A DNA stretch of 27,773 bases from Candidatus Micrarchaeia archaeon (GCA_038886535.1 JAVZXS010000008.1:1-27773), one strand, 5' to 3'. Positions 4,994 through 27,508 are shown, counted from the stretch's first letter. The notes: generated by a model from the letters alone, not told the origin. Numbers and translations: made by a program.

Positions 4994-5284
4994 TTAAACT
5001 AAAAATCTTATATCTGTGTAAGTAAATCCAATCTCTTTCAATTTTTTCTTTATCTGACTTTTTTGTAATCTTAACATTGACAGACAAACACTGCTTTCTA
5101 CTTTCACATATAATATTTTCTTCTCTTTGTCTTCTTTAAAAACATAACATTTGCCTTTTAGTGGGTCATCTATTAATTTTGTCCAAACTGCAGAAATATC
5201 TGAACATCTTGTTGTATCTACTTTCTCTTTTATACCTTCCATAATTCTTTTTATAATCACATCAATTCTTTCAATATCAGCCAT
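4994..5284 (-). CDS. dciA: DciA/DUF721-family protein
   Basis: Pattern W..LI.......C.........LYVKVESS....L...K..I..KL......TDIRFLV matches the recalled DUF721 pattern; 96 aa. Confidence 0.65.
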   Translation of the reverse strand: MADIERIDVIIKRIMEGIKEKVDTTRCSDISAVWTKLIDDPLKGKCYVFKEDKEKKILYVKVESSVCLSMLRLQKSQIKKKLKEIGFTYTDIRFLV

Positions 5285-5882
5285 GTTTTATTTTTAGTTT
5301 TCTGTTTATGTATTTCTTGGTGGCTTTGCTGGGTAAGAATTTTATTGTGTAAGTGTCTGGTATCTGGTATTCTCCTACAATTGGGTTTTTTACTTTTCTG
5401 GATTTCTTTTTCACTAACACAAATTTCCCAAAGTTTCTGATTTTGTATTCTGTCTTTCCGTTGCAAAGTGTATCAATTATATCCGAAACAAGCATTTTAA
5501 TTAAAAGTTGTTTTGTCTGAAATAAAATTGTTTTTTCCATTTTGGGCGGGATTTCTATTATTTTTTCTATTATCGCCTTAACTTCTGGTAATTTGTTTTT
5601 GACGATATCCCAAACCAATCTGTAATCTATTTCAAAATAAAAATGGGCTAATTCATCTCCTATTTTTGCAATATATTCCCAAGGGACTTCTTTGTATTTT
5701 TGCTTGAAAGGTTCAGGGACTTGTTTTATTATTTGCCTAATCATATAAATTTCTCCAATAACTGCCTTTTTAGTTTTCTCATCTTTGCAAAATGAATCAT
5801 AACTATGCTGGCTCGTGAAATCTTCTATATTTTTTATTGCCTTAATTATGTTTTGAAACAATAACCTTGTTTTCCTATTCAT
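5277..5882 (-). CDS. Fusion of a degenerate HepT/DUF86 HEPN domain with an HU/IHF-like DNA-binding domain
   Basis: N-term: KT.KAV...VPW..IA.IGDELAHFYFEID..LVW....LP (DUF86 pattern); C-term: IRNFGKF...KKSRKVKNPIVGE.QIP....KFLPSK (HU/IHF arm pattern). Confidence 0.8.
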   Translation of the reverse strand: MNRKTRLLFQNIIKAIKNIEDFTSQHSYDSFCKDEKTKKAVIGEIYMIRQIIKQVPEPFKQKYKEVPWEYIAKIGDELAHFYFEIDYRLVWDIVKNKLPEVKAIIEKIIEIPPKMEKTILFQTKQLLIKMLVSDIIDTLCNGKTEYKIRNFGKFVLVKKKSRKVKNPIVGEYQIPDTYTIKFLPSKATKKYINRKLKIKHG

Positions 5883-6581: not shown

Positions 6582-6630
6582 TTATACATTATACATTATA
6601 CTTTATACTTTATACTTTATACATTATACA
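6582..6630. repeat. Seven tandem TTATAC(A/T) heptads (candidate parS)
   Basis: ttataca ttataca ttatact ttatact ttatact ttataca ttataca; overlaps the parA stop codon. Confidence 0.9.
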
Positions 6631-7384
6631 ACTTTTTTAAAAACTCTTCTACGAATTCATAATAATCTTTTGCTCCAAATGAGACAGGACTGCATTGGTT
6701 AATAGGTTTGCCTTTTTTGCTTGCTTCTTGAAGGGATACAGTCCTTCTTATTTTTGTTTTAAAAAGCAAATCTTTTAAGTTTGTTTCCATTATTGTTTGT
6801 AAAGTTTCTTGACACATCTTTTCTCTTTTAGCATACATAGTAGGCAAAATCCCCAAGATGTAGTTTTTCTTTTCCAGTTGCCCTTCTATCTCTTTTGCAA
6901 GGTTTATTAAGACATTTAAACCTTCCAGAGGTAGATATTGTGTCTGAACAGGAATAAGTAGTTTATCCGCACAACAAAGCCCATTTATCGTCAAAATCCC
7001 TAAATTAGGTGGGCAGTCAATGATAATGAACTCAAATCTGTTTTCAAAAGGAGCCATTTTTTCTTTTAATACATTTTCTCTATTAAGAAGTTTTGTAAGA
7101 AGTTTAATTTCTAACTCTGCAAGTTTTAAAGTTGAGGGGAGTAGATATAAATTTTCATTTATTTTTAAAACACACTCATCAAAACTTGTCTCTCCTATAA
7201 GAAAGTTATATATGCTTTTTATTATTTCATCTGGATTAAAACCTAAATGAGTGGTTGCATTTGCCTGTGGGTCAAGGTCAATTAACAGAATTTTTTTCTT
7301 TTTCTCTGATAATATGCCTGCTAAATTTACGGCGGTTGTTGTTTTCCCTACTCCTCCTTTTTGGTTTGCTATCGCTATTATCAT
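6617..7384 (-). CDS. parA: ParA/Soj family partition ATPase
   Basis: NQKGGVGKTTT deviant Walker A, DLDPQANAT, IIIDCPPNLG. Confidence 0.97.
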   Translation of the reverse strand: MIIAIANQKGGVGKTTTAVNLAGILSEKKKKILLIDLDPQANATTHLGFNPDEIIKSIYNFLIGETSFDECVLKINENLYLLPSTLKLAELEIKLLTKLLNRENVLKEKMAPFENRFEFIIIDCPPNLGILTINGLCCADKLLIPVQTQYLPLEGLNVLINLAKEIEGQLEKKNYILGILPTMYAKREKMCQETLQTIMETNLKDLLFKTKIRRTVSLQEASKKGKPINQCSPVSFGAKDYYEFVEEFLKKLYNV

Positions 7385-7736
7385 TTTCCCCTCCTGTTTT
7401 AAAGAATAAATAAATATCTGTTTTCCCTTCTTTTCCTACTTGTGCTTTCCAACTGACTTCTACTTGGGAGAAATTGTCGTCTTTGCATAAACCAGAATGT
7501 TTAAGTGCATTTAAGATTGGCTGAAACCCTGCATAATTATCTAAATCTCGTCTTCTTCTATCCGGGAAAGTAAAAACAATCTTTACTTTTTTAATTTCTC
7601 CTTCTATTTTTTTACTTTTTATTTCTCCCCATATCCACCATTCCCATTTGTTAAATATCCTGTATCTTTCTTTGTAAAACATACGCAATAGTTGATTTTG
7701 ACTTGGCGGTATGGCTGGAATTGTTATTTTTTTCAT
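7278..7736 (-). CDS. rusA: RusA-like Holliday junction resolvase
   Basis: PPSQN N-terminal motif, PDRRRRDLDN, ALKHSGLCKDD. Confidence 0.8.
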   Translation of the reverse strand: MKKITIPAIPPSQNQLLRMFYKERYRIFNKWEWWIWGEIKSKKIEGEIKKVKIVFTFPDRRRRDLDNYAGFQPILNALKHSGLCKDDNFSQVEVSWKAQVGKEGKTDIYLFFKTGGENDNSDSKPKRRSRENNNRRKFSRHIIREKEKNSVN

Positions 7737-7924
7737 TCTATCTCCTTTAAGAAATCAATAATGTTCTGTCCTAAAATTTTATATTCCTTGCCTATTTTCT
7801 TCGCTTTAATTTTGCCTGTTTTAATTAATTCTGACATCTTCTTTATTGAAACTCGCAACAACTTTCTTGCTGTCTTAAAATTATATAGTCCGTAAGGGTC
7901 AATCTGGGTTATTCTGTCTTTCAT
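7733..7924 (-). CDS. Excisionase-like helix-turn-helix DNA-binding protein
   Basis: LYNFKTARKLLRVS......LIKTGKIKAKKIGKEYKI pattern (HTH_17 type); SD AAGGAGG. Confidence 0.8.
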   Translation of the reverse strand: MKDRITQIDPYGLYNFKTARKLLRVSIKKMSELIKTGKIKAKKIGKEYKILGQNIIDFLKEIE

Positions 7925-8781: not shown

Positions 8782-9357
8782 TCATTTTCTCACCTCCTTT
8801 CTTTGATTATTTATTTTCTTAATTATGTCTTCTATTCTTTCTATGCGTGGTTCAATTTTAACCCCGCATAGAACTTTTTCGTCATACTTCCCTCCCTTCT
8901 CTGGGTGGACGAAATGTTTGAATGCATATGATGCGTTGCAGGCCAACACAAACCCCAGAGTGTCATACTCTGGGGTTAAAATTATATTTTTTCTCAAGAT
9001 CCGTTTCTCTATTACAATGTTAAATGAATCATAGTAATAGTAAATCTGTGCAACCATCTTTCCTAACAAGGAAGAATATACTAACTTCTCGCAACTAGAG
9101 TTGAAGAAATGCCCCTCATTGTCGACATCTTTTATTCTTACTACCCACCAGTTAAGTGGGTAATTTGGACCCCAAAGCACTCCCACTCCTTCAGGAATAC
9201 ATGGGTTCAAATCATACTTTCCAGGGCCGGGACAATATGTCCCGATTACCCCTTTAAAGACCCATTCCACCCCTACTTTGGGGGCTTGGGCCTTGAGAAG
9301 AACTATTTCATCTGAAATGTAATGGTCTTGTCTGAGTTGTATTTTTTCATATTTCAT
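8782..9357 (-). CDS. Hypothetical protein preceded by a pseudoknot element
   Basis: 191 aa, SD AAGGAGG, 5' half visibly more GC-rich than the flanks. Confidence 0.75.
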   Translation of the reverse strand: MKYEKIQLRQDHYISDEIVLLKAQAPKVGVEWVFKGVIGTYCPGPGKYDLNPCIPEGVGVLWGPNYPLNWWVVRIKDVDNEGHFFNSSCEKLVYSSLLGKMVAQIYYYYDSFNIVIEKRILRKNIILTPEYDTLGFVLACNASYAFKHFVHPEKGGKYDEKVLCGVKIEPRIERIEDIIKKINNQRKEVRK

Positions 9358-9371
9358 TTCTTCCTCCTTTT

Positions 9372-9417
9372 GGGAGCATTTTTCCCCTCTCCCTACCGTG
9401 CTCCCGTTCGGTAGAGA
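9372..9417 (-). promoter_or_regulatory. SD-proximal H-type pseudoknot element, copy 1
   Basis: TCTCTACCG-AAC-GGGAGCA-CGGTAGGGA-linker-TGCTCCC-AAAAGGAGG. Confidence 0.8.
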
Positions 9418-10964: not shown

Positions 10965-11886
10965 TTGGCATCTCCTTCTTTATTTCATAACTTACTTTTT
11001 CTTGAGAAAAAACAACTTTACATTCTGGGTATTTCTGTTTGATTTTGTTTTGATATTTTGTAGTAGTGATTATTGCTTTAATTGTTTTTTCTGCATTGTC
11101 AAACTCTATCTTGTCTATATTGCAATCTGGTATGCTTCTTGTAAAACTCATAATTTCTTGCACAAAATCAAAAAAAGATTGTGAAAAGTCAATTTCTTTT
11201 ATTCTGTCAAGATATCTATTTGAGATTATCTTTTGTCTTTTCAGCCCAAGTTGTAAGTATTCGCTCTGCACTTTTGAGTATTCTTTATCTATGTTCTGTT
11301 TCTCAAAAAATGAGACAACTAAAAAATATAAACCAAGAATAATTAACGCAAGGTTAATAGATAAGACAATTTTTCTTTGTTGAATATTTTTGATTTTTTC
11401 TCTATATTGCAAAATTTCAGGCAGTAAAAACTCTACTTTTGTATCCCAGTGAATTTTTGCGTCTTGTATCTCTTTTATATTTTCTACTCCAAGGGTATTT
11501 TTCATAATCTGTAGAACCATCTCTTTTTGTTTCTCAAAATCCACGCTTTTTACTCTTGCTGGTTGTGTAATTCTTGTAGGGCTATATCCTGAAAAAATGA
11601 CTTCATCTCCTTCGCTATCAAACAAGACAAAAAATTTCTCACTAATAGAATGTAATACGCAACTTTGGTATGGAACTATTTTGTATCTTTCGTAATTTTC
11701 TATTTCTTTTATTTCCCGTAAGATATCTGCTGGTAATTCATATAGTATTATTCCTGTGTCTGTCTTTTCGTATGCGTAAATGCTTCCTTGAGTTCTTGCT
11801 ATCGTTTCAATCGCTTTTTCATCTGAAATAAACTTACATAATGCAAAGACGCAAATATTCTGCCCTCTGATAACATACCTTTTCAT
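10930..11886 (-). CDS. Bitopic membrane protein, possible type IV pilus/T2SS alignment component
   Basis: Cytoplasmic N-domain, one TM (IVLSINLALIILGLYFLVVSFF), coiled coil, small periplasmic domain; follows the secretin. Confidence 0.5.
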   Translation of the reverse strand: MKRYVIRGQNICVFALCKFISDEKAIETIARTQGSIYAYEKTDTGIILYELPADILREIKEIENYERYKIVPYQSCVLHSISEKFFVLFDSEGDEVIFSGYSPTRITQPARVKSVDFEKQKEMVLQIMKNTLGVENIKEIQDAKIHWDTKVEFLLPEILQYREKIKNIQQRKIVLSINLALIILGLYFLVVSFFEKQNIDKEYSKVQSEYLQLGLKRQKIISNRYLDRIKEIDFSQSFFDFVQEIMSFTRSIPDCNIDKIEFDNAEKTIKAIITTTKYQNKIKQKYPECKVVFSQEKVSYEIKKEMPNGNIKVASTQD

Positions 11887-13544
11887 TTCACTTCCTCCAC
11901 GCTTAATAATACAACAAGTTCGCTCTTTGTCTTTGCTTTAACTTTTTGAGAGAAGAAATATTTCAAAACAGGGACTTTTCCTAAAAAAGGAGTTCTTTGC
12001 TCCTTCATATTTGTTGTTTCTTTCATCAATCCCCCTAAAATTATCGTATCTCCTTTTTGCACTATTACAGAGGTATTCAATGCTCTCGTGTTAACATCTG
12101 GTGCTTCAATTTTTCCTCCTCCTGCAACAGGTATACTTCTTATTTCTGCAACTTCTTTTAAGGTAGGCATAAGCGAGATATAAATTTTCCCGTCATCGTT
12201 TATTTTAGGAATAAGCCCAAGAGTAAGTCCTTCTGTAATTTGGCTTGTTCCATATCCTGTAAGTAGTCCTAATTGTGTAGTTTCTTGCGTAATATTTGAA
12301 ATATAATTTTTAACAGCACCGACTTGTATACTCGCAGGTTGTGTATTCAAAACAGCAATAGAAGGTTGTGAAATTATTTTAACATTTCCAAACTCTTCAA
12401 GTAATTTCAATATAATCTGTGCCCCTTTTTCTGTTGTTCCAGCGTTTGCACTTCCTGTTGACCTGAATATGTAAGTATTTCCTTGTTCTACAAGAAAAAA
12501 AGATGAACTTAAACTATGTTTTAAATTAGAAGATAACCAGTCCCAGTTAATACCTTGTGAATATTTTTCTGTTAAATCAACTTCTACTATTTTTACTCGT
12601 AGATATACTTGCTTTGCAAATTCTTTATTGATTTCAGTTAATACTTTTTCTGCTTGATTAAGGTTTTCTGCATAGTCAGTTATAGTAATTATTCCTGTGT
12701 TTTTGTTTATTCCGTATTTGCCCTCTTTTGATAAAACCGCTTTTAAACTCTTTTCAATCTCATCATATACTTTCATCTCTTCTATCTTAATCTCTACTTT
12801 CGTGTTAGGACCTGCTTCTGAAGAACTCGTTGTAGTAGCCGTTGTATTTGCACTTTCAGTTATTGATTGTGTCCCTCCAAATCCAGATGTGCTTATAGAA
12901 GAAGAGAAAGAATGAGATATTGAAGGAAGAACAATTTTGAAAAGTTTTGTTCCAAAGGAATAGATATAGATTTTACCATCTTTGTATGAATAGGTTGCTT
13001 TTGCTTGTGTTGTTATATCATCTAAAACATTAGAAAGTTTTGATTTTTCAGCAAAACAAGAAATTTTTACATCTTGCACATCATTTGAAAGAATAAACTT
13101 TAATCCATATTCTATTGCCAGTTGTCCAAGTGCTACTTTAATAGGTAAATCATAAAAGGCAACTGAAACTTCTTTATCTAACTCGTCTGGGATTGTGTCT
13201 ATCACTATTTTTTCTTTTTTAATTTCTTGTTCTTTCTTTGTCTCTTGTAATTTTTCTGTTTCCTCTGTTTGTGGTTTTAATATTGATTGTTTTTCTTCTG
13301 TTATTGTTTGCTTTTGTTCTGCTGTTGATTGCTTCTGTTCTGCTATTACATATTCTGCTGGTTTTATAATTACTAACTGCTTATGTTTTGGGACATAAAA
13401 TCCGTTAACGATACCACTTGGCACTTCTATTTCGCATACAAGAGGTTGATAATAAAGATACTCTGGCAATTCGCTTTTTAAAAAATATGGTTTTTGTGCA
13501 TAAAGCATGCTTATCAAAAAAATAAAAACAACACATTTTCTCAT
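11883..13544 (-). CDS. Secretin (PilN/MshL/GspD-like outer-membrane channel)
   Basis: QVYLRVKIVEV, GINW, ISQPSIAVLNTQPASIQVG, GDTIILGGL, PFLGKVPVLKYFF, KSELVVLL. Confidence 0.92.
   Translation of the reverse strand: MRKCVVFIFLISMLYAQKPYFLKSELPEYLYYQPLVCEIEVPSGIVNGFYVPKHKQLVIIKPAEYVIAEQKQSTAEQKQTITEEKQSILKPQTEETEKLQETKKEQEIKKEKIVIDTIPDELDKEVSVAFYDLPIKVALGQLAIEYGLKFILSNDVQDVKISCFAEKSKLSNVLDDITTQAKATYSYKDGKIYIYSFGTKLFKIVLPSISHSFSSSISTSGFGGTQSITESANTTATTTSSSEAGPNTKVEIKIEEMKVYDEIEKSLKAVLSKEGKYGINKNTGIITITDYAENLNQAEKVLTEINKEFAKQVYLRVKIVEVDLTEKYSQGINWDWLSSNLKHSLSSSFFLVEQGNTYIFRSTGSANAGTTEKGAQIILKLLEEFGNVKIISQPSIAVLNTQPASIQVGAVKNYISNITQETTQLGLLTGYGTSQITEGLTLGLIPKINDDGKIYISLMPTLKEVAEIRSIPVAGGGKIEAPDVNTRALNTSVIVQKGDTIILGGLMKETTNMKEQRTPFLGKVPVLKYFFSQKVKAKTKSELVVLLSVEEVK
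13282..13344 (-). repeat. 3 x 21-bp imperfect coding repeat in the secretin N-terminal linker
   Basis: AEQKQST AEQKQTI TEEKQSI. Confidence 0.6.
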
Positions 13545-20329: not shown

Positions 20330-20378
20330 AAAATAAAAAAGGGCTGGAAGAAGGAGTTTCCCCTTCTCCCAGCCCCTT
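20330..20378 (-). terminator. Intrinsic terminator ending the establishment-like operon
   Basis: GGGCTGGGAGAAGG...CCTTCTTCCAGCCC followed by TTTTTTATTTT, just after the vWA stop. Confidence 0.8.
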
Positions 20379-20384
20379 AATTTT

Positions 20385-21914
20385 TCACAAAATTTTTAAT
20401 AATACATAAGGCAGGTCTTCTATTCTCTCTATCACCTGAAAATACTTCTTTGTTTCTTTTATTTCTTTTGATTCTTTTATTTCGTCAATTATCAAAATTC
20501 CCCTTGCGGTAGGTAAATATTTTCGCAGATATTCTATAGAACATGTTGCCCACTCTCCATCTGTAATGAAAATAATTTCCTTCTTGTTAGGTTGTTTATC
20601 TTTAAGCACTAAATCTATTGCTTTTTCTGGGCGTGTCCCTCCTTTAGGGAACGGGACTGCATAATCTCTTGACGATATAATTTTCCTTATGTTTATCTCT
20701 TCTGCAACATCGTTAAAGTAAATCACTTTTAAATTAATTTTTGGAATATTCATACATGCCTTCGTCAGATTGTATGCTATTTCAAACGCTCTTTTATATT
20801 TTTTCCCATCTTCCATTGAAATACTATTGTCAACACAGAGATAAAGAGTTATACTTTTTTCTTCTTTTTCTTCTTTTTTCATTACAGATGGGGGGTCAAT
20901 ATAAATTTTGTTTATCTTTTTGATATTTAATTTTTCAAGACCTGCCTTGGATTCCAACTTCTTCTGTAAAATTCTCCTTAATATCCACGGTTGCACTTTT
21001 ACTTCTTTTGGGGATAAATTCTCCATATATTCTTCTAACTTTTCTATCCCCAAAGAAGGGAGAGACGAAATTGCTTCTTTTAATTCTTCTACAACTTCTT
21101 CTATTTCGCTTTCTTCTGTTTCACTTTTTTCTTCATTTATTTCTGTATCCTGTGGTGTTTCTGTATCATTTTGTTGCTCTTTTTCATTTTCATCTTCCTG
21201 GTCGTTTTCTTCCTGTGGTTCTATATCATTCTGTTGCTTTTCATCTTCTTCCTGTGGTTCTGTATTATTCTGTTGCTTTTCATCTTCTTCTTTTTCATTT
21301 TCTTCCTCTGTGGTTGCTGTATCTTTTTCCTGTTGCTTCTGTTCTTGTATAAATTTTTTAACTTTTTCGTATATTTCTTCTACTGCTTCTTTTATACTAT
21401 TTTTTAACCTTTCTCCTTTTCTGATAAGTGGAACGCTTACAAGGATTTCTGCAATTTCGTCTCTTAAAGGTATAAGTTCTACTGGTAAACTTTCTTTTGG
21501 TATCTCCAGTCCTTCTGCTTTTATCATTGCCTCTGCGAGTAGTCCTGCAAGAATAGAAACTGGTTCAGCAGAGGCAATCTCATTTATTGTTATTTGAAAG
21601 AGATTTTTAACTTTGGGGTATTTTCTCATTATAAATCTGTCTAATCTGACATCTTCTACTACATTAAAAATCTCTCTCTTTATCTCTTCTGGTATATTTA
21701 TCTCGTTTACTATTCTTTCAAATAAATTTTTTGTGTTTAGTGAAATATGCTGTGTTTCGTGTAATAGTGTAGTAATAAGGACTGGAGATATTATGTTGTT
21801 ATATTTTTCAGGAAGATAAATGGTTCTCCCATCTGTTTTAGGAGGGCCTTCATAGAAAACAATCTCTACTTTTTTTTCTGCCCAGAATTTACTTAAAATT
21901 TCAATTGCTCTCAT
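20385..21914 (-). CDS. CobT-like protein: HExxH metallopeptidase-like domain, acidic linker, vWA domain
   Basis: PKTDGRTIYLP, LLHETQH, FNVVEDVRLD; MIDAS DNSISM, GGT, FITDG; start 21914 after SD AAGGAGG. Confidence 0.85.
   Translation of the reverse strand: MRAIEILSKFWAEKKVEIVFYEGPPKTDGRTIYLPEKYNNIISPVLITTLLHETQHISLNTKNLFERIVNEINIPEEIKREIFNVVEDVRLDRFIMRKYPKVKNLFQITINEIASAEPVSILAGLLAEAMIKAEGLEIPKESLPVELIPLRDEIAEILVSVPLIRKGERLKNSIKEAVEEIYEKVKKFIQEQKQQEKDTATTEEENEKEEDEKQQNNTEPQEEDEKQQNDIEPQEENDQEDENEKEQQNDTETPQDTEINEEKSETEESEIEEVVEELKEAISSLPSLGIEKLEEYMENLSPKEVKVQPWILRRILQKKLESKAGLEKLNIKKINKIYIDPPSVMKKEEKEEKSITLYLCVDNSISMEDGKKYKRAFEIAYNLTKACMNIPKINLKVIYFNDVAEEINIRKIISSRDYAVPFPKGGTRPEKAIDLVLKDKQPNKKEIIFITDGEWATCSIEYLRKYLPTARGILIIDEIKESKEIKETKKYFQVIERIEDLPYVLLKIL
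21207..21291 (-). repeat. 39-bp (13-aa) tandem coding repeat in the acidic linker
   Basis: EEDEKQQNNTEPQ EEDEKQQNDIEPQ. Confidence 0.75.
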
Positions 21915-21927
21915 TTTCTCCTCCTTT

Positions 21928-21976
21928 GACGGGAAAGGAAAAAGAAGGGGCGCCCCCGTCGTTAACGCCCCTTCTT
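21928..21976 (-). promoter_or_regulatory. SD-proximal pseudoknot element, copy 2
   Basis: AAGAAGGGGCG-TT-AAC-GACGGG-GG-CGCCCCTTCTT-linker-CCCGTC-AAAGGAGG. Confidence 0.8.
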
Positions 21977-21981
21977 GTTTT

Positions 21982-22812
21982 TTATAATGCTTCCCCAAAT
22001 ACTACCGAGGCAATTCCTTTATATGCCTCAGCAATATCTGGGTCTGTTGCTTTGATTTTATTCAGGAAGCAACTTTTAATTGCCTCCTGTTTTCCTATCA
22101 CTTTTGAGAGTGCTTCATATTGAAGCAACTCTCTAATGCCAAATTGTATAGGGAGATTTTCCTTTTCTGATAGTTTTATTACTTCCTCATAGAATAAAAC
22201 TGCTTCTTCGTCTTTTATGATCTTTTCAAGTTCTTTTCTTTCCCAGCAGGGCACTTCTACTACCACTACTCGGGAAAGTAAAGCGAAATTCAATGGTTGT
22301 GTTCCGTAGTATACTTTCCCTGTAGGGTTAGAAGCAAGAATAACTTCTGCCTCTACTGGGAAAACTTTTGAAACTTCTGGAAGGAAAAACCTTTTGTTGT
22401 TGAGCAACTCGTGAAGGAAGAACAAATATTCTCCCTCCAGCGAGTTGACTTCATCAAAAATGACTACTGACTTTGTGGTTAGAAAATGCGTCAGTAGCCC
22501 TAAGTTAAATTCTGTTTCAGGACCTGTAGGACCATTGGTAAGTTTCCAATGACCCAACAATTCTCTTAAATTTTTGAAGTCGCAATTTACTATAAGAAGA
22601 GGAAGGTTCTTTTTACAGGCATACCATTCAGCGAAAGCGGTCTTGCCTGTTCCGCTATCACCGATAAGGTATGGCGTAAATCCCTCCTGTAATATCTTTT
22701 CTACGATGTTATAAAAGGTCCTTTCTATGTAATTTACAGAAGGGATATACTCTGTTAAATCATATCTTCTTGGATATTCTTTTTCTATTTTTTCTATTTT
22801 TATCATCTTCAT
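21982..22812 (-). CDS. MoxR/CbbQ/CobS-like AAA+ ATPase
   Basis: GDSGTGKT, VIFDEVN, ILASNP, YYGTQPLNFALLSR, GIREL; adjacent vWA partner. Confidence 0.9.
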   Translation of the reverse strand: MKMIKIEKIEKEYPRRYDLTEYIPSVNYIERTFYNIVEKILQEGFTPYLIGDSGTGKTAFAEWYACKKNLPLLIVNCDFKNLRELLGHWKLTNGPTGPETEFNLGLLTHFLTTKSVVIFDEVNSLEGEYLFFLHELLNNKRFFLPEVSKVFPVEAEVILASNPTGKVYYGTQPLNFALLSRVVVVEVPCWERKELEKIIKDEEAVLFYEEVIKLSEKENLPIQFGIRELLQYEALSKVIGKQEAIKSCFLNKIKATDPDIAEAYKGIASVVFGEAL

Positions 22813-22826
22813 TTTCTCCTCCTTTG

Positions 22827-22878
22827 GTGAGCCACAAAAGAAACAGGGGAAGGTGGCTCACGTTCCCTTCCCCTGTTT
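22827..22878 (-). promoter_or_regulatory. SD-proximal pseudoknot element, copy 3
   Basis: AAACAGGGGAAGG-GAAC-GTGAGCCA-CCTTCCCCTGTTT-CTTTTG-TGGCTCAC-CAAAGGAGG. Confidence 0.85.
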
Positions 22879-22888
22879 GTTCTTTTTT

Positions 22889-23365
22889 TTATCTTAATTT
22901 AAAAATAATGTTCTGTCTGGTTCTTAAACCTCCGATGATAGCATTTCCTGTATGATGAAATCCGTAAAGTTTCCCGTCATCAGATTTCTTGGCTCTTTCT
23001 ATTAGGTCTTCCAGTGTCACCATCCAAGAGTAATTTTCCTTTAATGTATCTATTGTCTCAATCACTACAATTTCTGCTTCTACAAGGTAATGACCTCTGG
23101 TTTCATCATCCATGTGGGGTTCTCCAACAATTAAAACTACATCTCCTATTTTAGGAGTGTAGTTTTCCCCAAGGGGGCGGAAGAAATTAAACCATTCATC
23201 GTCTTCATAATTCTCTTTGAGAATTTTAGGTAAATCTATGCCCATTTCTTCTGCCTTCTCTCTTATTTTCACAAATATTTCCCCATATTTCTGCACGCTG
23301 CTCAAAAGGTTTTGAGCATAATTAAATAACTCTGGAAAATCTTTTATTGTTATTCTTTTTTTCAT
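22889..23365 (-). CDS. Hypothetical protein
   Basis: 158 aa, SD AAGGAGG. Confidence 0.78.
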   Translation of the reverse strand: MKKRITIKDFPELFNYAQNLLSSVQKYGEIFVKIREKAEEMGIDLPKILKENYEDDEWFNFFRPLGENYTPKIGDVVLIVGEPHMDDETRGHYLVEAEIVVIETIDTLKENYSWMVTLEDLIERAKKSDDGKLYGFHHTGNAIIGGLRTRQNIIFKLR

Positions 23366-23379
23366 CTTTGCCTCCTTTT

Positions 23380-23427
23380 GTGAGCCAAAAATAGAGGGGA
23401 GAGTGGCTCACATTTACTCTCCCCTCT
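23380..23427 (-). promoter_or_regulatory. SD-proximal pseudoknot element, copy 4
   Basis: AGAGGGGAGAGT-AAAT-GTGAGCC-ACTCTCCCCTCT-ATTTTT-GGCTCAC-AAAAGGAGG. Confidence 0.85.
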
Positions 23428-23440
23428 TTTATTTCTTTTT

Positions 23441-24055
23441 TTATTTTTTGGGAAGCGCCATTAGCTCTTTTATAATTTTACTTGCTTCTTCTTTTGAACT
23501 AACTTCTGGCACTTCCACCCCTTTTTCTTGTGCTAATTTTCTTATTAGCACAAGTTGGGGTTTTGAAGGTTTTAAAGAATTTAAATTAGGAGTTTCCTTG
23601 GGAACTTCTTGGGGTTGAGGACTTTCTTTAGGAACTTCTGGAGAAGGAGAATTCTGTGCTGTTGGTCTTAAAAGTCCCCTATATGCCTTGGAGCCAATAC
23701 CCCAAAGGGATAGACCCTTTCCAAGGGCATCTGTTATGGCTCCTTTTTCAGCGTCTCCCGGATAATTTGTAGAGACGCCGAATTGAGGACCTTTGCAGAC
23801 CAACTCGTCTCCAATCTTGATATATACCTCTACTTGAGCAACGGCAGTTATTCTGCCGTTGTCCCCGGGGGTTGTAGTTAGAGATACTAACTTAAACCCC
23901 CAGTTTTCTTCTCCTAATACCTCATTGACAGCATCAATGAGGTATTGAGGTTTGTATCCCCATAGAGACCCCCAAGGTCTCTTTTCTTCCTGTATGGCTT
24001 CATCGCCATACTTTTCAAGAATTTCATTGATTTTTCTTACTTTTTCTCTTATCAT
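23441..24055 (-). CDS. Rad52/Rad22-family (Sak-like) ssDNA-annealing protein
   Basis: YLIDAVNEVLGEENW, AEKGAITDALGKGLSLWGIG..AY; Pro-rich linker; small C-terminal helical domain (S.PQL..I..L...SKEEASKII). Confidence 0.82.
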   Translation of the reverse strand: MIREKVRKINEILEKYGDEAIQEEKRPWGSLWGYKPQYLIDAVNEVLGEENWGFKLVSLTTTPGDNGRITAVAQVEVYIKIGDELVCKGPQFGVSTNYPGDAEKGAITDALGKGLSLWGIGSKAYRGLLRPTAQNSPSPEVPKESPQPQEVPKETPNLNSLKPSKPQLVLIRKLAQEKGVEVPEVSSKEEASKIIKELMALPKK

Positions 24056-24069
24056 TTTTTTCTCCTTTT

Positions 24070-24118
24070 AGAGGCAAAAAATAAAAAAACCCCCAGTGTG
24101 CCTCCGTTCACTGGGAGT
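24070..24118 (-). promoter_or_regulatory. SD-proximal pseudoknot element, copy 5
   Basis: ACTCCCAGTG-AAC-GGAGGCA-CACTGGGGGT-T-rich-TGCCTCT-AAAAGGAG. Confidence 0.85.
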
Positions 24119-24132
24119 AAGTTCTTGTTTAT

Positions 24133-24903
24133 TTACTCTATTCTTTTACAGGAAACTCCAGCGTATCTATCTGGAATTTCCTGTCTTTCAAACAGAACCT
24201 CCCAATCTGGTTCTTCACAACAGATTGGGAGATATTCACACATACCACAGAAAAAGGACACATTCTTGTAAAATGGTCCTTCTTCCATAAGAACAACCTG
24301 TTCACTCCAGAGCATTATGTCTTCCTGCCTGACAATAATATCAACAACAGGGGAAAAAACAATTTCAGGATTTTTATTTCTTTTGATGTAGATATACCCC
24401 CCTTTTGTTATTCCCGTCAGGTAGGAATACATCTTTAATTGAGGGTCTATTTTTTCTTTTCCCTCAATTAAAGATTTGGTTATTTTCCAATCCAGAACGA
24501 CTTTCTCGCCGTTCTGGATTGCAATAATGTCTGGAGTGCCTTTGAGCAACCCTATTGGTAGTTTTCTTTCGTAGGGTTGCTCAATTTCTATAATTTCCAA
24601 AGAAGCAACTACTTGAGGAATTTGAGATAGGATTTTTAATCCTATCTCTTTCAAACTTTCCCCGTCTTCCCTTTCAGGATAGACGAGGATATCTTTTACC
24701 TTATCCCAGAGGTTGACAAAAAATTCCTCTGGGTTTTTTACTTCCTGTTTTAGCCACTTCTGGATAGTGAGGTGTATATAGTTTCCAAACACCTCACTAC
24801 TTCTTTTTACACGAGGGACTAATCCCTCGTGATATTTTAGCCAGTATCCATATGGACACTGGCTGTGAGTTTTCAACATTGACGGAGTAATATATTCTCT
24901 CAT
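24133..24903 (-). CDS. PD-(D/E)XK nuclease (RecB/AddB/Cas4-like) with probable Fe-S cysteines
   Basis: SMLKTHSQCP, FGNYIH, GTPDII, VLDWK, QLKMY, CGMCEYLPIC. Confidence 0.88.
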   Translation of the reverse strand: MREYITPSMLKTHSQCPYGYWLKYHEGLVPRVKRSSEVFGNYIHLTIQKWLKQEVKNPEEFFVNLWDKVKDILVYPEREDGESLKEIGLKILSQIPQVVASLEIIEIEQPYERKLPIGLLKGTPDIIAIQNGEKVVLDWKITKSLIEGKEKIDPQLKMYSYLTGITKGGYIYIKRNKNPEIVFSPVVDIIVRQEDIMLWSEQVVLMEEGPFYKNVSFFCGMCEYLPICCEEPDWEVLFERQEIPDRYAGVSCKRIE

Positions 24904-24917
24904 TTCTCTCCTCCTTT

Positions 24918-24968
24918 GGAGACAAAAAAATAAAAACCCTCAAAATGTGTCTCCGTTCATTTGAGGGT
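24918..24968 (-). promoter_or_regulatory. SD-proximal pseudoknot element, copy 6
   Basis: ACCCTCAAATG-AAC-GGAGACA-CATTTTGAGGGT-T-rich-TGTCTCC-AAAGGAGG. Confidence 0.85.
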
Positions 24969-24995
24969 GTTGGAAGAAGATTTAAAGAGAAGGTT

Positions 24996-25047
24996 GGAGA
25001 CAATAAGAACTTCACGCCCCCAGTGTGTCTCCGTTCACTGGGGGCGT
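24996..25047 (-). promoter_or_regulatory. Pseudoknot element, copy 7 (tandem, not followed by SD or ORF)
   Basis: ACGCCCCCAGTG-AAC-GGAGACA-CACTGGGGGCGT-GAAGTTCTTAT-TGTCTCC. Confidence 0.85.
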
Positions 25048-25052
25048 TATTT

Positions 25053-25727
25053 TTAATCGCCCACCCGAGGTAATGGGTGGGTTACTTTATATACCCCACC
25101 CTTTAATAGGATGGGTTCGTCCATATGGTCTGGTGAGACCACATGGACAAAATTTTGGGAAATTAAAAGATATTCCTCTTCCGTATCTTTTTTGATACGG
25201 AAGATTTTACAACCACCACCAAAAAATTGGTGGTTGTAGATTCTACGCCTTCCCGGCGTAGAATCAAAATACTTCTGAGCACGACCCCAATAAGGGTCGC
25301 GCTCATCTATGAAACAGGGGAGTATTTTTAAACTCCCCTGTTTTATTTTTTCTCCTGTCCCGAGAATTTTGACTCGGGACAAGAGAGATTCGATTTTTGT
25401 GAGTTCAGATGGGTATATCCTTCCGTCAAGATATACCCATCTTTCTTGATCGACTCTCCACCCCCACTTATATGGGGGTGGAAAATCTCTTTCACGGGTG
25501 ACAATGATGTCACCCGTGAAATAAAACTCCGCTGACGGGCAGTATCCCCTGCCCGTCACGGCCCATTCAGGGAGACACCAATACCAGGCGCCTCCCTTAC
25601 TTTGGTAAGTTCTGCCCCTTATATAGGCAGAAATTACCTTAATTGTTCCCCACGGAAGTGGGGGACAATTTTCATCCCGGGGATACCTCGTATCCCGGTA
25701 TAAGTTGTTATTAATTAAAAATATCAT
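25053..25727 (-). CDS. Hypothetical protein (GC-richer than backbone)
   Basis: Start reassigned to 25727 (MIFLINN) after SD AAGGAGG; 224 aa. Confidence 0.75.
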   Translation of the reverse strand: MIFLINNNLYRDTRYPRDENCPPLPWGTIKVISAYIRGRTYQSKGGAWYWCLPEWAVTGRGYCPSAEFYFTGDIIVTRERDFPPPYKWGWRVDQERWVYLDGRIYPSELTKIESLLSRVKILGTGEKIKQGSLKILPCFIDERDPYWGRAQKYFDSTPGRRRIYNHQFFGGGCKIFRIKKDTEEEYLLISQNFVHVVSPDHMDEPILLKGGVYKVTHPLPRVGD

Positions 25728-25743
25728 CTTCTCTCCTCCTTTT

Positions 25744-25794
25744 GGGATACAACAAAAAAACTCCCCGTGCGGTATCCCGTTCACACGGGGAGTT
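25744..25794 (-). promoter_or_regulatory. SD-proximal pseudoknot element, copy 8
   Basis: AACTCCCCGTGTG-AAC-GGGATAC-CGCACGGGGAGTT-TTTTTGTT-GTATCCC-AAAAGGAGG. Confidence 0.85.
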
Positions 25795-25816
25795 GCTTTT
25801 CCTACACTTTTCCCTA

Positions 25817-25867
25817 TTATCCTAATATGGATAATAGGGTTAAAATGCATTTAATTATTTGCGCCAT
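25817..25867 (-). CDS. 16-aa leader peptide MAQIIKCILTLLSILG
   Basis: Full SD AAGGAGGTGA upstream of ATG; first strongly initiated ORF after the 26014-26042 promoter; stop lies in an 11-bp hairpin (25812-25839). Confidence 0.65.
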   Translation of the reverse strand: MAQIIKCILTLLSILG

Positions 25868-26013
25868 TTTTTTGTCACCTCCTTTCTCTTTTTTTGCCTT
25901 GAGTGAAGAAGACATTAAACTTGTCAAAGAACCTCTGTAGGTTTTTTACGAGGACCTGCCCCTCGCCCGGGTTTTTCCTTGGCCCTAAACCCGGGAAAAC
26001 CATTCTTACTTTC

Positions 26014-26190: not shown

Positions 26191-26994
26191 TTATCGTGCA
26201 GTTAGAGTTATTTTCCTTATTATTCTTTCTTCTACTTGTTTTTTTCTCTGACTTATCTTTTTTATTATCTTATCAATTGCCTTTCTTCTTCTCTCGGCTG
26301 TTTTTATCTTTTTCCATTTCTTTATTGCTCCTCTTAAATCTTCGTCTAACTCTATTCCTACTCCATCTTTTATTGCTTTTTCTATCTCTCTTATTGACAC
26401 TTTTTCTAACTGCTTCCATTCTCCATTTTTTCTCAACATCCATTTATCTTCTCTAATTTTTACATTCCACCTTTTATTAACCTGTTTTCTTATTTTTGTT
26501 TTTATCTTTTTTATTTCTTCAATTTCACATCCTAATTCTTGTGTATATTTTTCTAATTTTCGTCTCTTAACCCTAACTTTTTTTATTCTTTCCATTATTT
26601 TTCTTAACTCTCTGTAGTTTCTATTCCACCATTTTATTTCTTCTGCCTTTTTAGGGGTTATCCATTTCCCTTTCACTCTCCACCCTTCTATCTTCCAAAA
26701 TGCAACATCGTATTTATTTCCCCAGTTTATACTCCTTCCCAATTCCCTTTTAAAAACTTCATTATTAAACTCTCTTATTTTTCTTTCATTCATATCTACG
26801 CCTAAACATTTATATTTCTTTCCATACCAACTTACCCCTAAAAACTGCATCCAATACCATCTATTTTCTCTTTTTAACATTCTTATTGGTAGTTTTTCTT
26901 TTTTACAATACCAATTTACCCTTTGTGCTATTATATCCATCAGTTCTTTTATTTCTTCTTCTTTTCTATTTAACCAGTTTTCTATTACTTTCAT
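26191..26994 (-). CDS. Highly basic Lys/Arg/Trp-rich hypothetical protein
   Basis: Long ORF; start reassigned to 26994 (MKVIENW) after SD AAGGAG. Confidence 0.7.
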   Translation of the reverse strand: MKVIENWLNRKEEEIKELMDIIAQRVNWYCKKEKLPIRMLKRENRWYWMQFLGVSWYGKKYKCLGVDMNERKIREFNNEVFKRELGRSINWGNKYDVAFWKIEGWRVKGKWITPKKAEEIKWWNRNYRELRKIMERIKKVRVKRRKLEKYTQELGCEIEEIKKIKTKIRKQVNKRWNVKIREDKWMLRKNGEWKQLEKVSIREIEKAIKDGVGIELDEDLRGAIKKWKKIKTAERRRKAIDKIIKKISQRKKQVEERIIRKITLTAR

Positions 26995-27041: not shown

Positions 27042-27135
27042 GCAAGATTGCTATCGCAACCTTGCTTTGTCCCGCTCGGCACTCTGAAACTTCCTCGCAC
27101 CTACCTTTCGTAGGTGCTTCGGAACTTTCAGTGCC
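27042..27135 (-). other. GC-rich double-hairpin element
   Basis: GGCACTGAAAGTTCC-GAA-GCACCTAC-GAAAG-GTAGGTGC-GA-GGAAGTTTCAGAGTGCC and GCAAGGTTGC-GATA-GCAATCTTGC. Confidence 0.6.
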
Positions 27136-27409
27136 TCGCTCTCACCCTTATTTTTTTTGTTCATTTTTGTTTATATTATACCGTATGTGCACATTATTAA
27201 AAAACATATCCCTTATTAAATTGACTAATCCTTTGCTACATAATAGTTTCAAAATATATATCTACTTTTTGGGGAATATATATACCGTGGTGCACTTTTC
27301 TTTTTTAAAATATAACAAAAATTTTTCTTTTTGCTTGCTATATTTGGCTTTTAGAATTCTTTTGCACTTACTTTTTTGTTTCTTTTGTTGTCTATCAAGG
27401 GGTTTAATG

Positions 27410-27508
27410 TTATACGTTATACTTCATACAAAACTTTGTTATACATTATACATTATACTTTATACTTTATACATTATACTTTATACATCATACATTATAC
27501 TTTATACA
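27410..27508. repeat. Thirteen T(T/C)ATAC(A/T/G) heptads (3 + 10 tandem); second candidate parS
   Basis: Three heptads 27410-27430 and ten contiguous heptads 27439-27508; 39 bp identical to 6577-6615. Confidence 0.9.

Follow-up and report, generated by a model that had tools for sequence, protein, structure and literature searches.

The DNA analysed here, which we refer to as the window, is the entire 27,773-base contig JAVZXS010000008.1 (C8) of a metagenome-assembled genome (MAG) deposited as Candidatus Micrarchaeia archaeon (GCA_038886535.1), whose parent assembly comprises 40 contigs and 1.14 Mb (1.137 Mb). Its minus strand carries eight copies (pk1–pk8) of a pseudoknot-type element in which the loop of a GC-rich hairpin is complementary to the sequence shortly downstream of that hairpin, in seven cases right beside a Shine-Dalgarno (SD) sequence. 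Seven of the copies lie within a single promoter-to-terminator operon, six of them at gene starts and one (pk6) as an orphan, with pk8 located in a separate 5' leader, and two more copies are found in a related metagenome contig of 2,430 bases (L002). This observation is confirmed as real and statistically secure.

Each element, as derived by reading the minus (coding) strand and by an automatic parse, consists in order of stem 1 (S1), loop 1 (L1), the loop arm, loop 2 (L2), the 3' arm of S1, loop 3 (L3), the complement of the loop arm with which it forms stem 2 (S2), and finally (C/A)AAAGGAG. Every one of the five gaps between the six operon genes holds an element and another precedes the first gene. 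From promoter to terminator the operon reads in the order given below, with pk8 added as the last line (ORF, open reading frame; S2 is given as loop arm/partner).

26042-26014, minus strand: probable operon promoter (TTGACA-17-TATAAA), read by eye and absent from the promoter-scan listing
25814..25864, minus strand: leader ORF of 16 codons with a strong SD, upstream of pk7
25812-25839, minus strand: 11-bp hairpin across the stop codon of the 16-codon leader ORF
25744..25794, minus strand: pk7, between the leader ORF and the 224-aa gene; S1 13 bp, S2 GGGATAC/GTATCCC, L3 8 nt and U-rich
25053-25727, minus strand: gene for a 224-aa protein of unknown family, first gene of the operon
24996..25047, minus strand: pk6, the orphan after the 224-aa gene; S1 12 bp, S2 arms identical to those of pk5; lacks a U-tract, SD and start codon and stands in tandem immediately upstream of pk5
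24918..24968, minus strand: pk5, before the nuclease gene; S1 9 bp (+2 past a bulge), S2 GGAGACA/TGTCTCC, L3 11 nt and U-rich
24133-24903, minus strand: PD-(D/E)XK nuclease gene
24070..24118, minus strand: pk4, before the Rad52-like gene; S1 10 bp including one G.U, S2 GGAGGCA/TGCCTCT, L3 12 nt and U-rich
23441-24055, minus strand: Rad52-like gene
23379..23427, minus strand: pk3, before the 158-aa gene; S1 11 bp, L1 TAAA, S2 (T)GTGAGCC(A)/(T)GGCTCAC(A)
22889-23365, minus strand: gene for a 158-aa protein, unknown
22827..22878, minus strand: pk2, before the ATPase gene; S1 12 bp, S2 GTGAGCCA(C)/(G)TGGCTCAC, L3 5-6 nt, then CAAAGGAGG and ATG at 22812
21982-22812, minus strand: AAA_5 MoxR-type ATPase gene
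21928..21976, minus strand: pk1, before the vWA gene; S1 13 bp, L1 AAC, S2 GACGGG/CCCGTC, L3 8 nt and U-rich, then AAAGGAGG and ATG at 21914
20385-21914, minus strand: vWA-domain gene, last gene of the operon
20338..20378, minus strand: intrinsic terminator at the operon end, with a 19-bp stem, 3-nt loop and T-run
9372..9417, minus strand: pk8, in the 5' leader of a 191-aa gene (8782-9357); S1 9 bp, S2 GGGAGCA/TGCTCCC, L3 GAGGGGAAAAA and thus without a U-tract; ~75 nt downstream of a 12/12 match to TTGACA-17-TATAAT (9520-9492), with no gene upstream

Reading and parse agree in placing all eight copies on the minus strand at the coordinates given in a preliminary description of this DNA, and every loop/partner pair listed in that description was found by the parse. 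In the window S1 comprises 9-13 GC-rich bp, L1 3-5 nt, S2 6-9 bp and L3 5-12 nt, while L2 is 0 nt in seven of the eight copies and 3 nt in one, and the hairpin loops measure 10-17 nt. L1 contains AAC in 7/8 copies as had been described, the eighth (23379-23427) being parsed as TAAA. The loop-to-downstream helix is present in all ten copies (eight in the window and two in L002), and S1 and S2 together span 16-21 bp end to end. An L1 of 3 nt over a 7-bp S2, an L2 of 0 nt and an L3 of 5-12 nt running along S1 fit the classical H-type pseudoknot, and the assignment of the element to this class, with the two helices placed end to end because L2 is mostly 0 nt, is well supported by the sequences.

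The element is held at a constant distance from the ribosome-binding site (RBS), with 3-4 nt between the end of S2 and GGAG in 7/7 window copies that have an SD and in 9/9 when the L002 copies are included. The distance from the upstream stop codon is variable (~5 to 28 nt). Directly after S1, 5-7 of the next 8 nt are U in eight of the ten copies, with three in pk6 and none in pk8. The description of the element as standing before the SD of every long gene is borne out for 6/6 operon genes and applies to one gene elsewhere; it does not extend to the other genes of the contig, and pk6 lacks an SD altogether.

Evidence that the pairing rather than the sequence is retained comes first from L002, which encodes an AAA ATPase 63% identical to that of the window and has the same gene order (Rad52-like, AAA, vWA) apart from the 158-aa gene, which is missing. 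Both of its gaps hold an element, before the AAA and the vWA genes respectively, with S1 of AAAGGGCAGGG and ACAGGCAGGAG, S2 of GGGTAA/TTACCC and TAGGGAAA/TTTCCCTA, L1 of CAAATC and TGTAAAA, a U-rich L3, and an S2 partner that stops 3-4 nt before GGAG. None of these arms resembles any arm in the window, so that both helices are kept in orthologous gaps by unrelated S1 and S2 sequences, as would be expected from the earlier claim that the two helices are preserved despite differences in primary sequence. As L1 differs in L002 and the layout is kept, it is the geometry and not the AAC of L1 that is constant in this family.

Amongst the ten copies there are ten distinct S1 arms and nine distinct S2 core arms. 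MAFFT alignments (A2-A4) misplace the helices, and we therefore used an alignment based on the parse together with a model-made alignment of eight copies (A7). In the parse-based alignment of all ten copies 90/90 S1 cells and 60/60 S2 cells are paired; when the 3' arms were dealt among the copies the mean number of paired cells fell to 46.5 for S1 and 36.9 for S2, and the observed values were reached in 0/5000 permutations. Double-sided changes occur at all nine S1 and all six S2 core positions (15 pair positions). In A7, 90.8% of cells are paired compared with 63.8% in shuffles and 37-60% in slid controls, 12/16 pairs show double changes against 6.4 in shuffles, and the covariation score is 0.661 against 0.187 (0/500 shuffles); these counts understate S2 because it is mis-registered in three rows (two are one column off and one has its loop arm in insert columns). 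Copies that are evident paralogues (pk2/pk3 and pk4/pk5/pk6) also differ from one another by compensatory substitutions, and pk3, for example, resembles a paralogue of pk2 with an S1 altered by compensatory changes. With the permutation, shuffle and slid controls all below the observed pairing, the proposal of a covarying H-type pseudoknot is upheld and, at the level of sequence comparison, the structure is shown to be under selection.

Scans for the architecture indicate that it is specific to this contig within the assembly. A strict scan of the 1.137-Mb assembly on both strands recovered all eight copies, and every other match was AT-rich and of low complexity. A relaxed scan anchored on GGAG gave eight rows in the 27.8 kb of C8 (seven true elements and one chance match in a coding region), whilst the remaining 1.109 Mb contributed 14 weak rows that all lack the architecture, and when applied to 34 relative loci (316,933 bases) it returned 38 rows with the architecture seen only in the two from L002. 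When the 30 nt after S1 were shuffled, a loop complement of at least 6 bp arose in 0 to 1131 of 5000 trials depending on the copy. A covariance model of S1 only, trained on pk4, pk5, pk7 and pk8, matched pk6 (E 1e-7), the two L002 copies (4e-6 and 6e-5), pk2 (3e-4), and pk1 and part of pk3 (near E 0.1); the four window copies that had not been used to build it were thus retrieved, there was no other full-length match, and over the entire assembly C8 alone was matched.

The preliminary description had not recognised the element as a named family, and this agrees with a search of the whole window against the 4227 families of Rfam, which returned no matches at E up to 1. Searches of small regions at E up to 10 produced no plasmid-replication pseudoknot family and nothing near a gathering score. 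Two candidates were rejected: Termite-leu (RF01730), whose gathering score is 51, reached at best 28.4 bits (L002, 568-645) and accommodates the loop of the element as inserted residues within a generic hairpin of tight loop, and a partial match to PyrG_leader reflects generic hairpin similarity.

The known distribution of the element is two contigs, C8 and L002, in a comparison from which the contigs encoding the closer ATPase homologues P0002-P0008 were absent. The AAA ATPase used as a single-sequence query found no relatives in genome_contigs or viral_contigs, and an alignment of eight ATPase homologues found at least 27 loci in metagenome_contigs, where L002 is the sole close locus among the matches listed, plus six distant loci in genome_contigs and one distant locus in viral_contigs. 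The nuclease and Rad52-like queries found nothing in viral_contigs, and tblastn against plasmids returned only MoxR ATPases (27.6% identity or less) and TraC (~27%). A search with the 224-aa family found one locus (L036; 39% identity) in which the gene overlaps its neighbour and no pseudoknot is present. We note that L036, an IMG/VR contig, has a repeated intergenic unit of its own at 7022-7090 and 7727-7795, made up of a TAAGC...GCTTA hairpin with a short loop, a common spacer of ~22 nt and GGGAGG before ATG, and showing no loop-to-downstream pairing.

The strand on which the element would act can be judged from its mismatches. The called stems contain 109 G-C, 69 A-U and 6 G.U pairs, but the parse accepted only standard and G.U pairs and is therefore uninformative on A.C mismatches. 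An unbiased count over 35 operon hairpins found seven internal G.U on the sense strand, one A.C and two other mismatches, and the L002 hairpins have three T.G, no A.C and one G.A. Wobbles on the sense strand are thus favoured by 7:1 in the operon and 3:0 in L002, in keeping with the G-U compatibility previously noted for the coding strand. This bias, together with the fixed contact with the SD, points to mRNA as the acting molecule.

Pseudoknot-free folding always returned S1, with z-scores of -2.3 to -5.5 and predicted energies of -11 to -24 kcal/mol at 37 C that are still negative at 75 C, and the S2 duplex was estimated at -6.4 to -15.7 kcal/mol at 37 C with initiation included. In most copies the pseudoknot-free folds also pair the U-rich L3 and part of the 3' arm of S2 with the SD, spacer and AUG, and these predicted SD-masking hairpins have energies of -4.4 to -12.6 kcal/mol at 37 C for the nine copies which precede genes.

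Hairpins are not confined to the gaps. Counting perfect stems of at least 9 bp with at least 4 G/C, there are 30 on C8, of which 26 lie between 23 and 27 kb; outside C8 the assembly has 0.04 per kb. The 224-aa, nuclease and Rad52-like genes contain nine, six and three respectively, where synonymous-codon shuffles give 0.14, 0.04 and 0.01 and reach the observed counts in 0/200, and there are none in the three distal operon genes, TraC or the secretin gene. The hairpin-packed stretch (window 23400-25900, minus strand) is promoter-proximal, and coding hairpins are also seen in L002.

Amongst DNA contigs from four runs of one study, a contig from another run skips 22819-23370 (552 bases), a segment which corresponds to the 158-aa gene plus one element and whose ends fall in the SDs of pk3 and pk2. 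Because this deletion ends in two SDs and L002 is without the 158-aa gene, the elements act on these contigs as borders of cassettes, if only by way of homologous recombination.

With regard to the origin of the contig, domain searches identified the transfer genes TraC, TraL, TraH and TrbI, the lipoprotein TraV and a VirB2-type pilin, and C8 also encodes ParA, a tyrosine recombinase, a lytic transglycosylase and a secretin. An SD of the AAGGAG type is present at most genes and there are perfect TTGACA-17-TATAAT (sigma-70-type) promoter sites, and a type IV secretion gene promoter comes after the operon terminator. At E up to 1e-10, none of 400 other genomes of the phylum of the MAG has a relative of the AAA ATPase, and amongst named homologues the nearest comes from a MAG labelled Candidatus Ratteibacteria. 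We treat C8 as a mis-binned bacterial element on account of these bacterial-type genes, SDs and promoters and the absence of the ATPase from the 400 phylum genomes, and it is probably a conjugative element of a bacterium which was binned with an archaeal MAG. The operon had been called establishment-like, a label whose sole basis is gene content (nuclease, Rad52-like, MoxR-type AAA ATPase and vWA genes together with two unknowns); neither an oriT nor a relaxase was found on C8, and its position in a leading region is therefore unproven.

The first gene of the operon encodes a genuine conserved protein family, as judged from 11 homologues with 36-42% identity, many invariant residues and motifs such as NHQF and SPDH-like stretches. 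It has no match in Pfam, NCBIfam, PHROG or PDB, and a profile search of PDB sequences gave nothing below E 0.36.

Several other features of the contig may be recorded here. The secretin is a true one (PF00263, E 6.5e-34; 11883-13544, minus strand) and lies within an F-like TraL-TraB-TraV-TraC cluster, which is unusual for that transfer type. The ORF at 5277-5882 (minus strand) combines a HepT-like (HEPN RNase toxin) and an HU/IHF-like DNA-binding domain and may represent two separate genes that were read together. Arrays of the heptamer TTATACA at 6582-6630 (seven copies, abutting the ParA gene) and 27439-27508 (ten copies) may be centromere or iteron-like sites. Finally, a long imperfect hairpin and a second stem-loop at 27050-27170 (minus strand) are found in the leader of a lysine-rich 267-aa ORF (26191-26994) and have no Rfam match.

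The explanation we favour, to which we would assign a probability of about 0.45, is that the elements are cis-acting RNA modules of a polycistronic mRNA, anchored to the RBS, in which a hairpin with a U-tract is combined with a pseudoknot that exposes the SD. Following a gene, S1 and the U-rich L3 could serve as a leaky terminator and/or as a hairpin which protects the 3' end of the upstream cistron. On read-through S2 would form and so prevent the U-rich tail, and with it the pyrimidine-rich 3' arm, from pairing with the purine-rich SD and AUG region, as they would otherwise do. The compact and stable fold thus placed at the 5' border of the 30S site would allow each cistron to be initiated independently and efficiently, with its 5' side shielded from nucleases. 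The whole unit might then be regarded as a portable punctuation made up of a terminator-like hairpin, a pseudoknot and an SD. It fits this explanation that the U-tract is missing just in the leader copy pk8 and the orphan pk6, and that in pk8 an element without a U-tract stands in a promoter leader which has no upstream gene.

A number of points weigh against it. The SDs are near perfect already (AAAGGAGG) and most other genes on the contig have a good SD and no pseudoknot, so an enhancer is not obviously needed. Neither half of the proposed dual role is universal, as pk6 is a full pseudoknot without an SD and both pk6 and pk8 lack a U-tract, and termination may be weak or absent because loops of 10-17 nt exceed those of usual intrinsic terminators. 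The predicted SD-masking hairpins are rich in A-U and G-U pairs and come to or near zero at 60 C and above, and the anti-masking step would consequently matter little if the host grows hot; it should be noted that all of these energies are rough values obtained from pseudoknot-free folding. In addition, the motif is known from two records only, the covariation counts cannot be taken as independent events since the eight window copies are paralogues, and each sequence served to define its own pairs.

It is conceivable, though we think it doubtful, that the element is mainly concerned with processing or stability, with the stacked S1 and S2 forming a nuclease barrier or a processing site from which separately stable cistrons would be produced and any effect on translation being indirect. 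This would suit the occurrence of an element in all five gaps and before the first gene, an end-to-end length of 16-21 bp for the two helices, and the hairpin packing of the first three coding regions, which fits a nuclease-resistant mRNA. However, a plain hairpin would suffice as a 3' barrier and the retention of S2 is left unexplained, as is the fixed 3-4 nt to GGAG, and since RNase III needs roughly two turns of duplex, S1 alone (9-13 bp) is short for that enzyme. A regulated switch between the pseudoknot, in which the SD is free, and an SD-masking hairpin, set by temperature, by a trans factor binding the loop or by translational coupling to the upstream gene (as in repY/repZ and repB/repA), seems improbable to us. 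Masking hairpins are predicted in most copies to melt between 37 and 60 C, and a 16-codon leader ORF lies upstream of pk7, but such hairpins are an expected by-product of placing a U-tract beside a purine-rich RBS and are lacking in pk8 and pk6; furthermore, the loop arms differ, which means that no single antisense RNA or sequence-specific factor would fit all copies, and the distance from stop codon to S1 varies over ~5-28 nt.

We hold it to be very unlikely that the role is at the DNA level, with the interleaved repeats acting on sense single-stranded DNA during transfer or replication or as recombination sites flanking cassettes. The contig is conjugative and has a tyrosine recombinase, the region is very rich in hairpins inside genes as well, and the segment 22819-23370 is lacking from one contig of another run just as the 158-aa gene is from L002. 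Yet contact with the SD and ATG is constant, which points to mRNA, and the wobble bias is on the sense strand whereas it is the template strand that is transferred in those leading regions that have been studied best. The ends of the deletion fall in a repeat of ~17 nt (the 3' arm of S2 plus the SD) shared by pk2 and pk3, and homologous recombination therefore explains it. Integron attC sites in particular were rejected, as cores of that type (RYYYAAC / GTTRRRY) occur in none of the ten elements and the repeats interleave and do not nest. A further alternative is that these are ordinary terminator hairpins whose loop complementarity is due to chance or to hitch-hiking from recent duplication, for which pk2/pk3 and pk4/pk5/pk6 are clearly paralogous and U-tracts follow 8/10 copies. 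This seems close to refuted by the sequences, as the paralogues change both helices by compensatory substitutions, L002 keeps the architecture with unrelated arms, the true terminator at the end of the operon has a loop without pairing to downstream sequence, and the shuffle and permutation controls exclude chance. Two other candidates were also set aside: a stimulator of stop-codon read-through or frameshifting, as the elements keep no set spacing from the upstream stop (~5-28 nt) and there are additional stops beyond it, and a loop arm serving as a second SD, as GGAG is found in only some of the arms.

Taking the cis-acting RBS-anchored module as our preferred explanation, what is new is the geometry of an RBS-adjacent pseudoknot used as a repeated unit, free in sequence and conserved in structure, before seven genes and fused to a terminator-like hairpin. 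If correct, it would illustrate a way of punctuating a polycistronic message in which every cistron has an end, a lifetime and a start of its own, and it would offer a compact natural part of ~50 nt with which the genes of synthetic operons could be insulated, perhaps at high temperature. The natural variants already supply many arm pairs and so lend themselves to compensatory-mutation tests. A more speculative extension, and in our opinion an unlikely one, is that the operon is an 'armoured message' in which genes are carried as cassettes with self-insulating units, the promoter-proximal 2.4 kb is filled besides with selected hairpins in the coding regions, and the transcript (or the sense DNA) resists the nucleases or RNA-targeting defences of a recipient. 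Were this so, it would help the conjugative element to become established in thermophilic, uncultivated bacteria, and the pseudoknot would be a general portable device for the expression of newly acquired genes.

We found no published description of a repeated RBS-adjacent pseudoknot in the literature searched, which excluded most subscription journals, and in a paper on leading regions (PMC13478746) pseudoknots are unmentioned. The analogies which had been drawn with the CUP repeats of IncN plasmids and the attenuators of the pLS20 family found no support in this literature, with the paper on pLS20 establishment mentioning no terminator, hairpin or pseudoknot. The elements share with intrinsic terminators a GC-rich stem, an A-rich 5' flank and, in 8/10 copies, a U-rich tail. 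They differ in having loops of 10-17 nt compared with the usual 3-8, a loop which is complementary to the RNA after the U-tract, and two copies with no U-tract, and a consensus terminator scan called none of the eight on the minus strand save for a 5-bp sub-stem of pk1. Structures between cistrons are also known from the RNase III sites of the phage T7 early region and from REP-type hairpins, and the presence of one structure per intergenic gap is a likeness to such sites and intercistronic stabilisers; those structures are plain or internally looped, without a described pseudoknot between loop and RBS flank or a fixed distance to the SD.

The SAS and ESAS motifs of Cluster K mycobacteriophages provide another case of a repeated motif at the translation starts of a subset of mobile-element genes (PMC3203893). 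These have a 13-bp start-associated consensus and a 17-bp inverted-repeat consensus, with about half being closely preceded by an inverted repeat, and they are suspected of acting in translation initiation (PMC3203893). They are conserved in sequence and no pseudoknot is described for ESAS, whereas in our elements it is the pairing that is kept, the sequence being free outside (A)AAGGAG and a short L1 motif. In the tisB mRNA a pseudoknot is reported to be required for the binding of 30S and ribosomal protein S1 and for translation, with evidence from compensatory mutations of stem 2, and it acts ~100 nt from a sequestered RBS, whereas the elements abut an open and strong SD (PMC7708055).

The activator pseudoknot of repZ/repA in IncI1, IncB/O and IncL/M plasmids also has a hairpin loop that pairs beside a downstream SD, in a plasmid-borne system. 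Initiation of RepZ translation in the IncI1 and IncB/O plasmids requires the loop-to-leader pseudoknot (PMC8053102). That pseudoknot lies downstream of a translated leader ORF, and there is one copy per plasmid, located before the replication gene and with an antisense RNA aimed at the loop. In contrast, the window has eight copies with different loops, placed before unrelated genes, no replication gene among them, and mostly with a U-tract after S1, and Rfam detects no homology at E up to 1. On the sequences compared, the element therefore resembles the repZ/repA activator pseudoknot in its geometry and stands outside that family as a repeated, structure-conserved counterpart.

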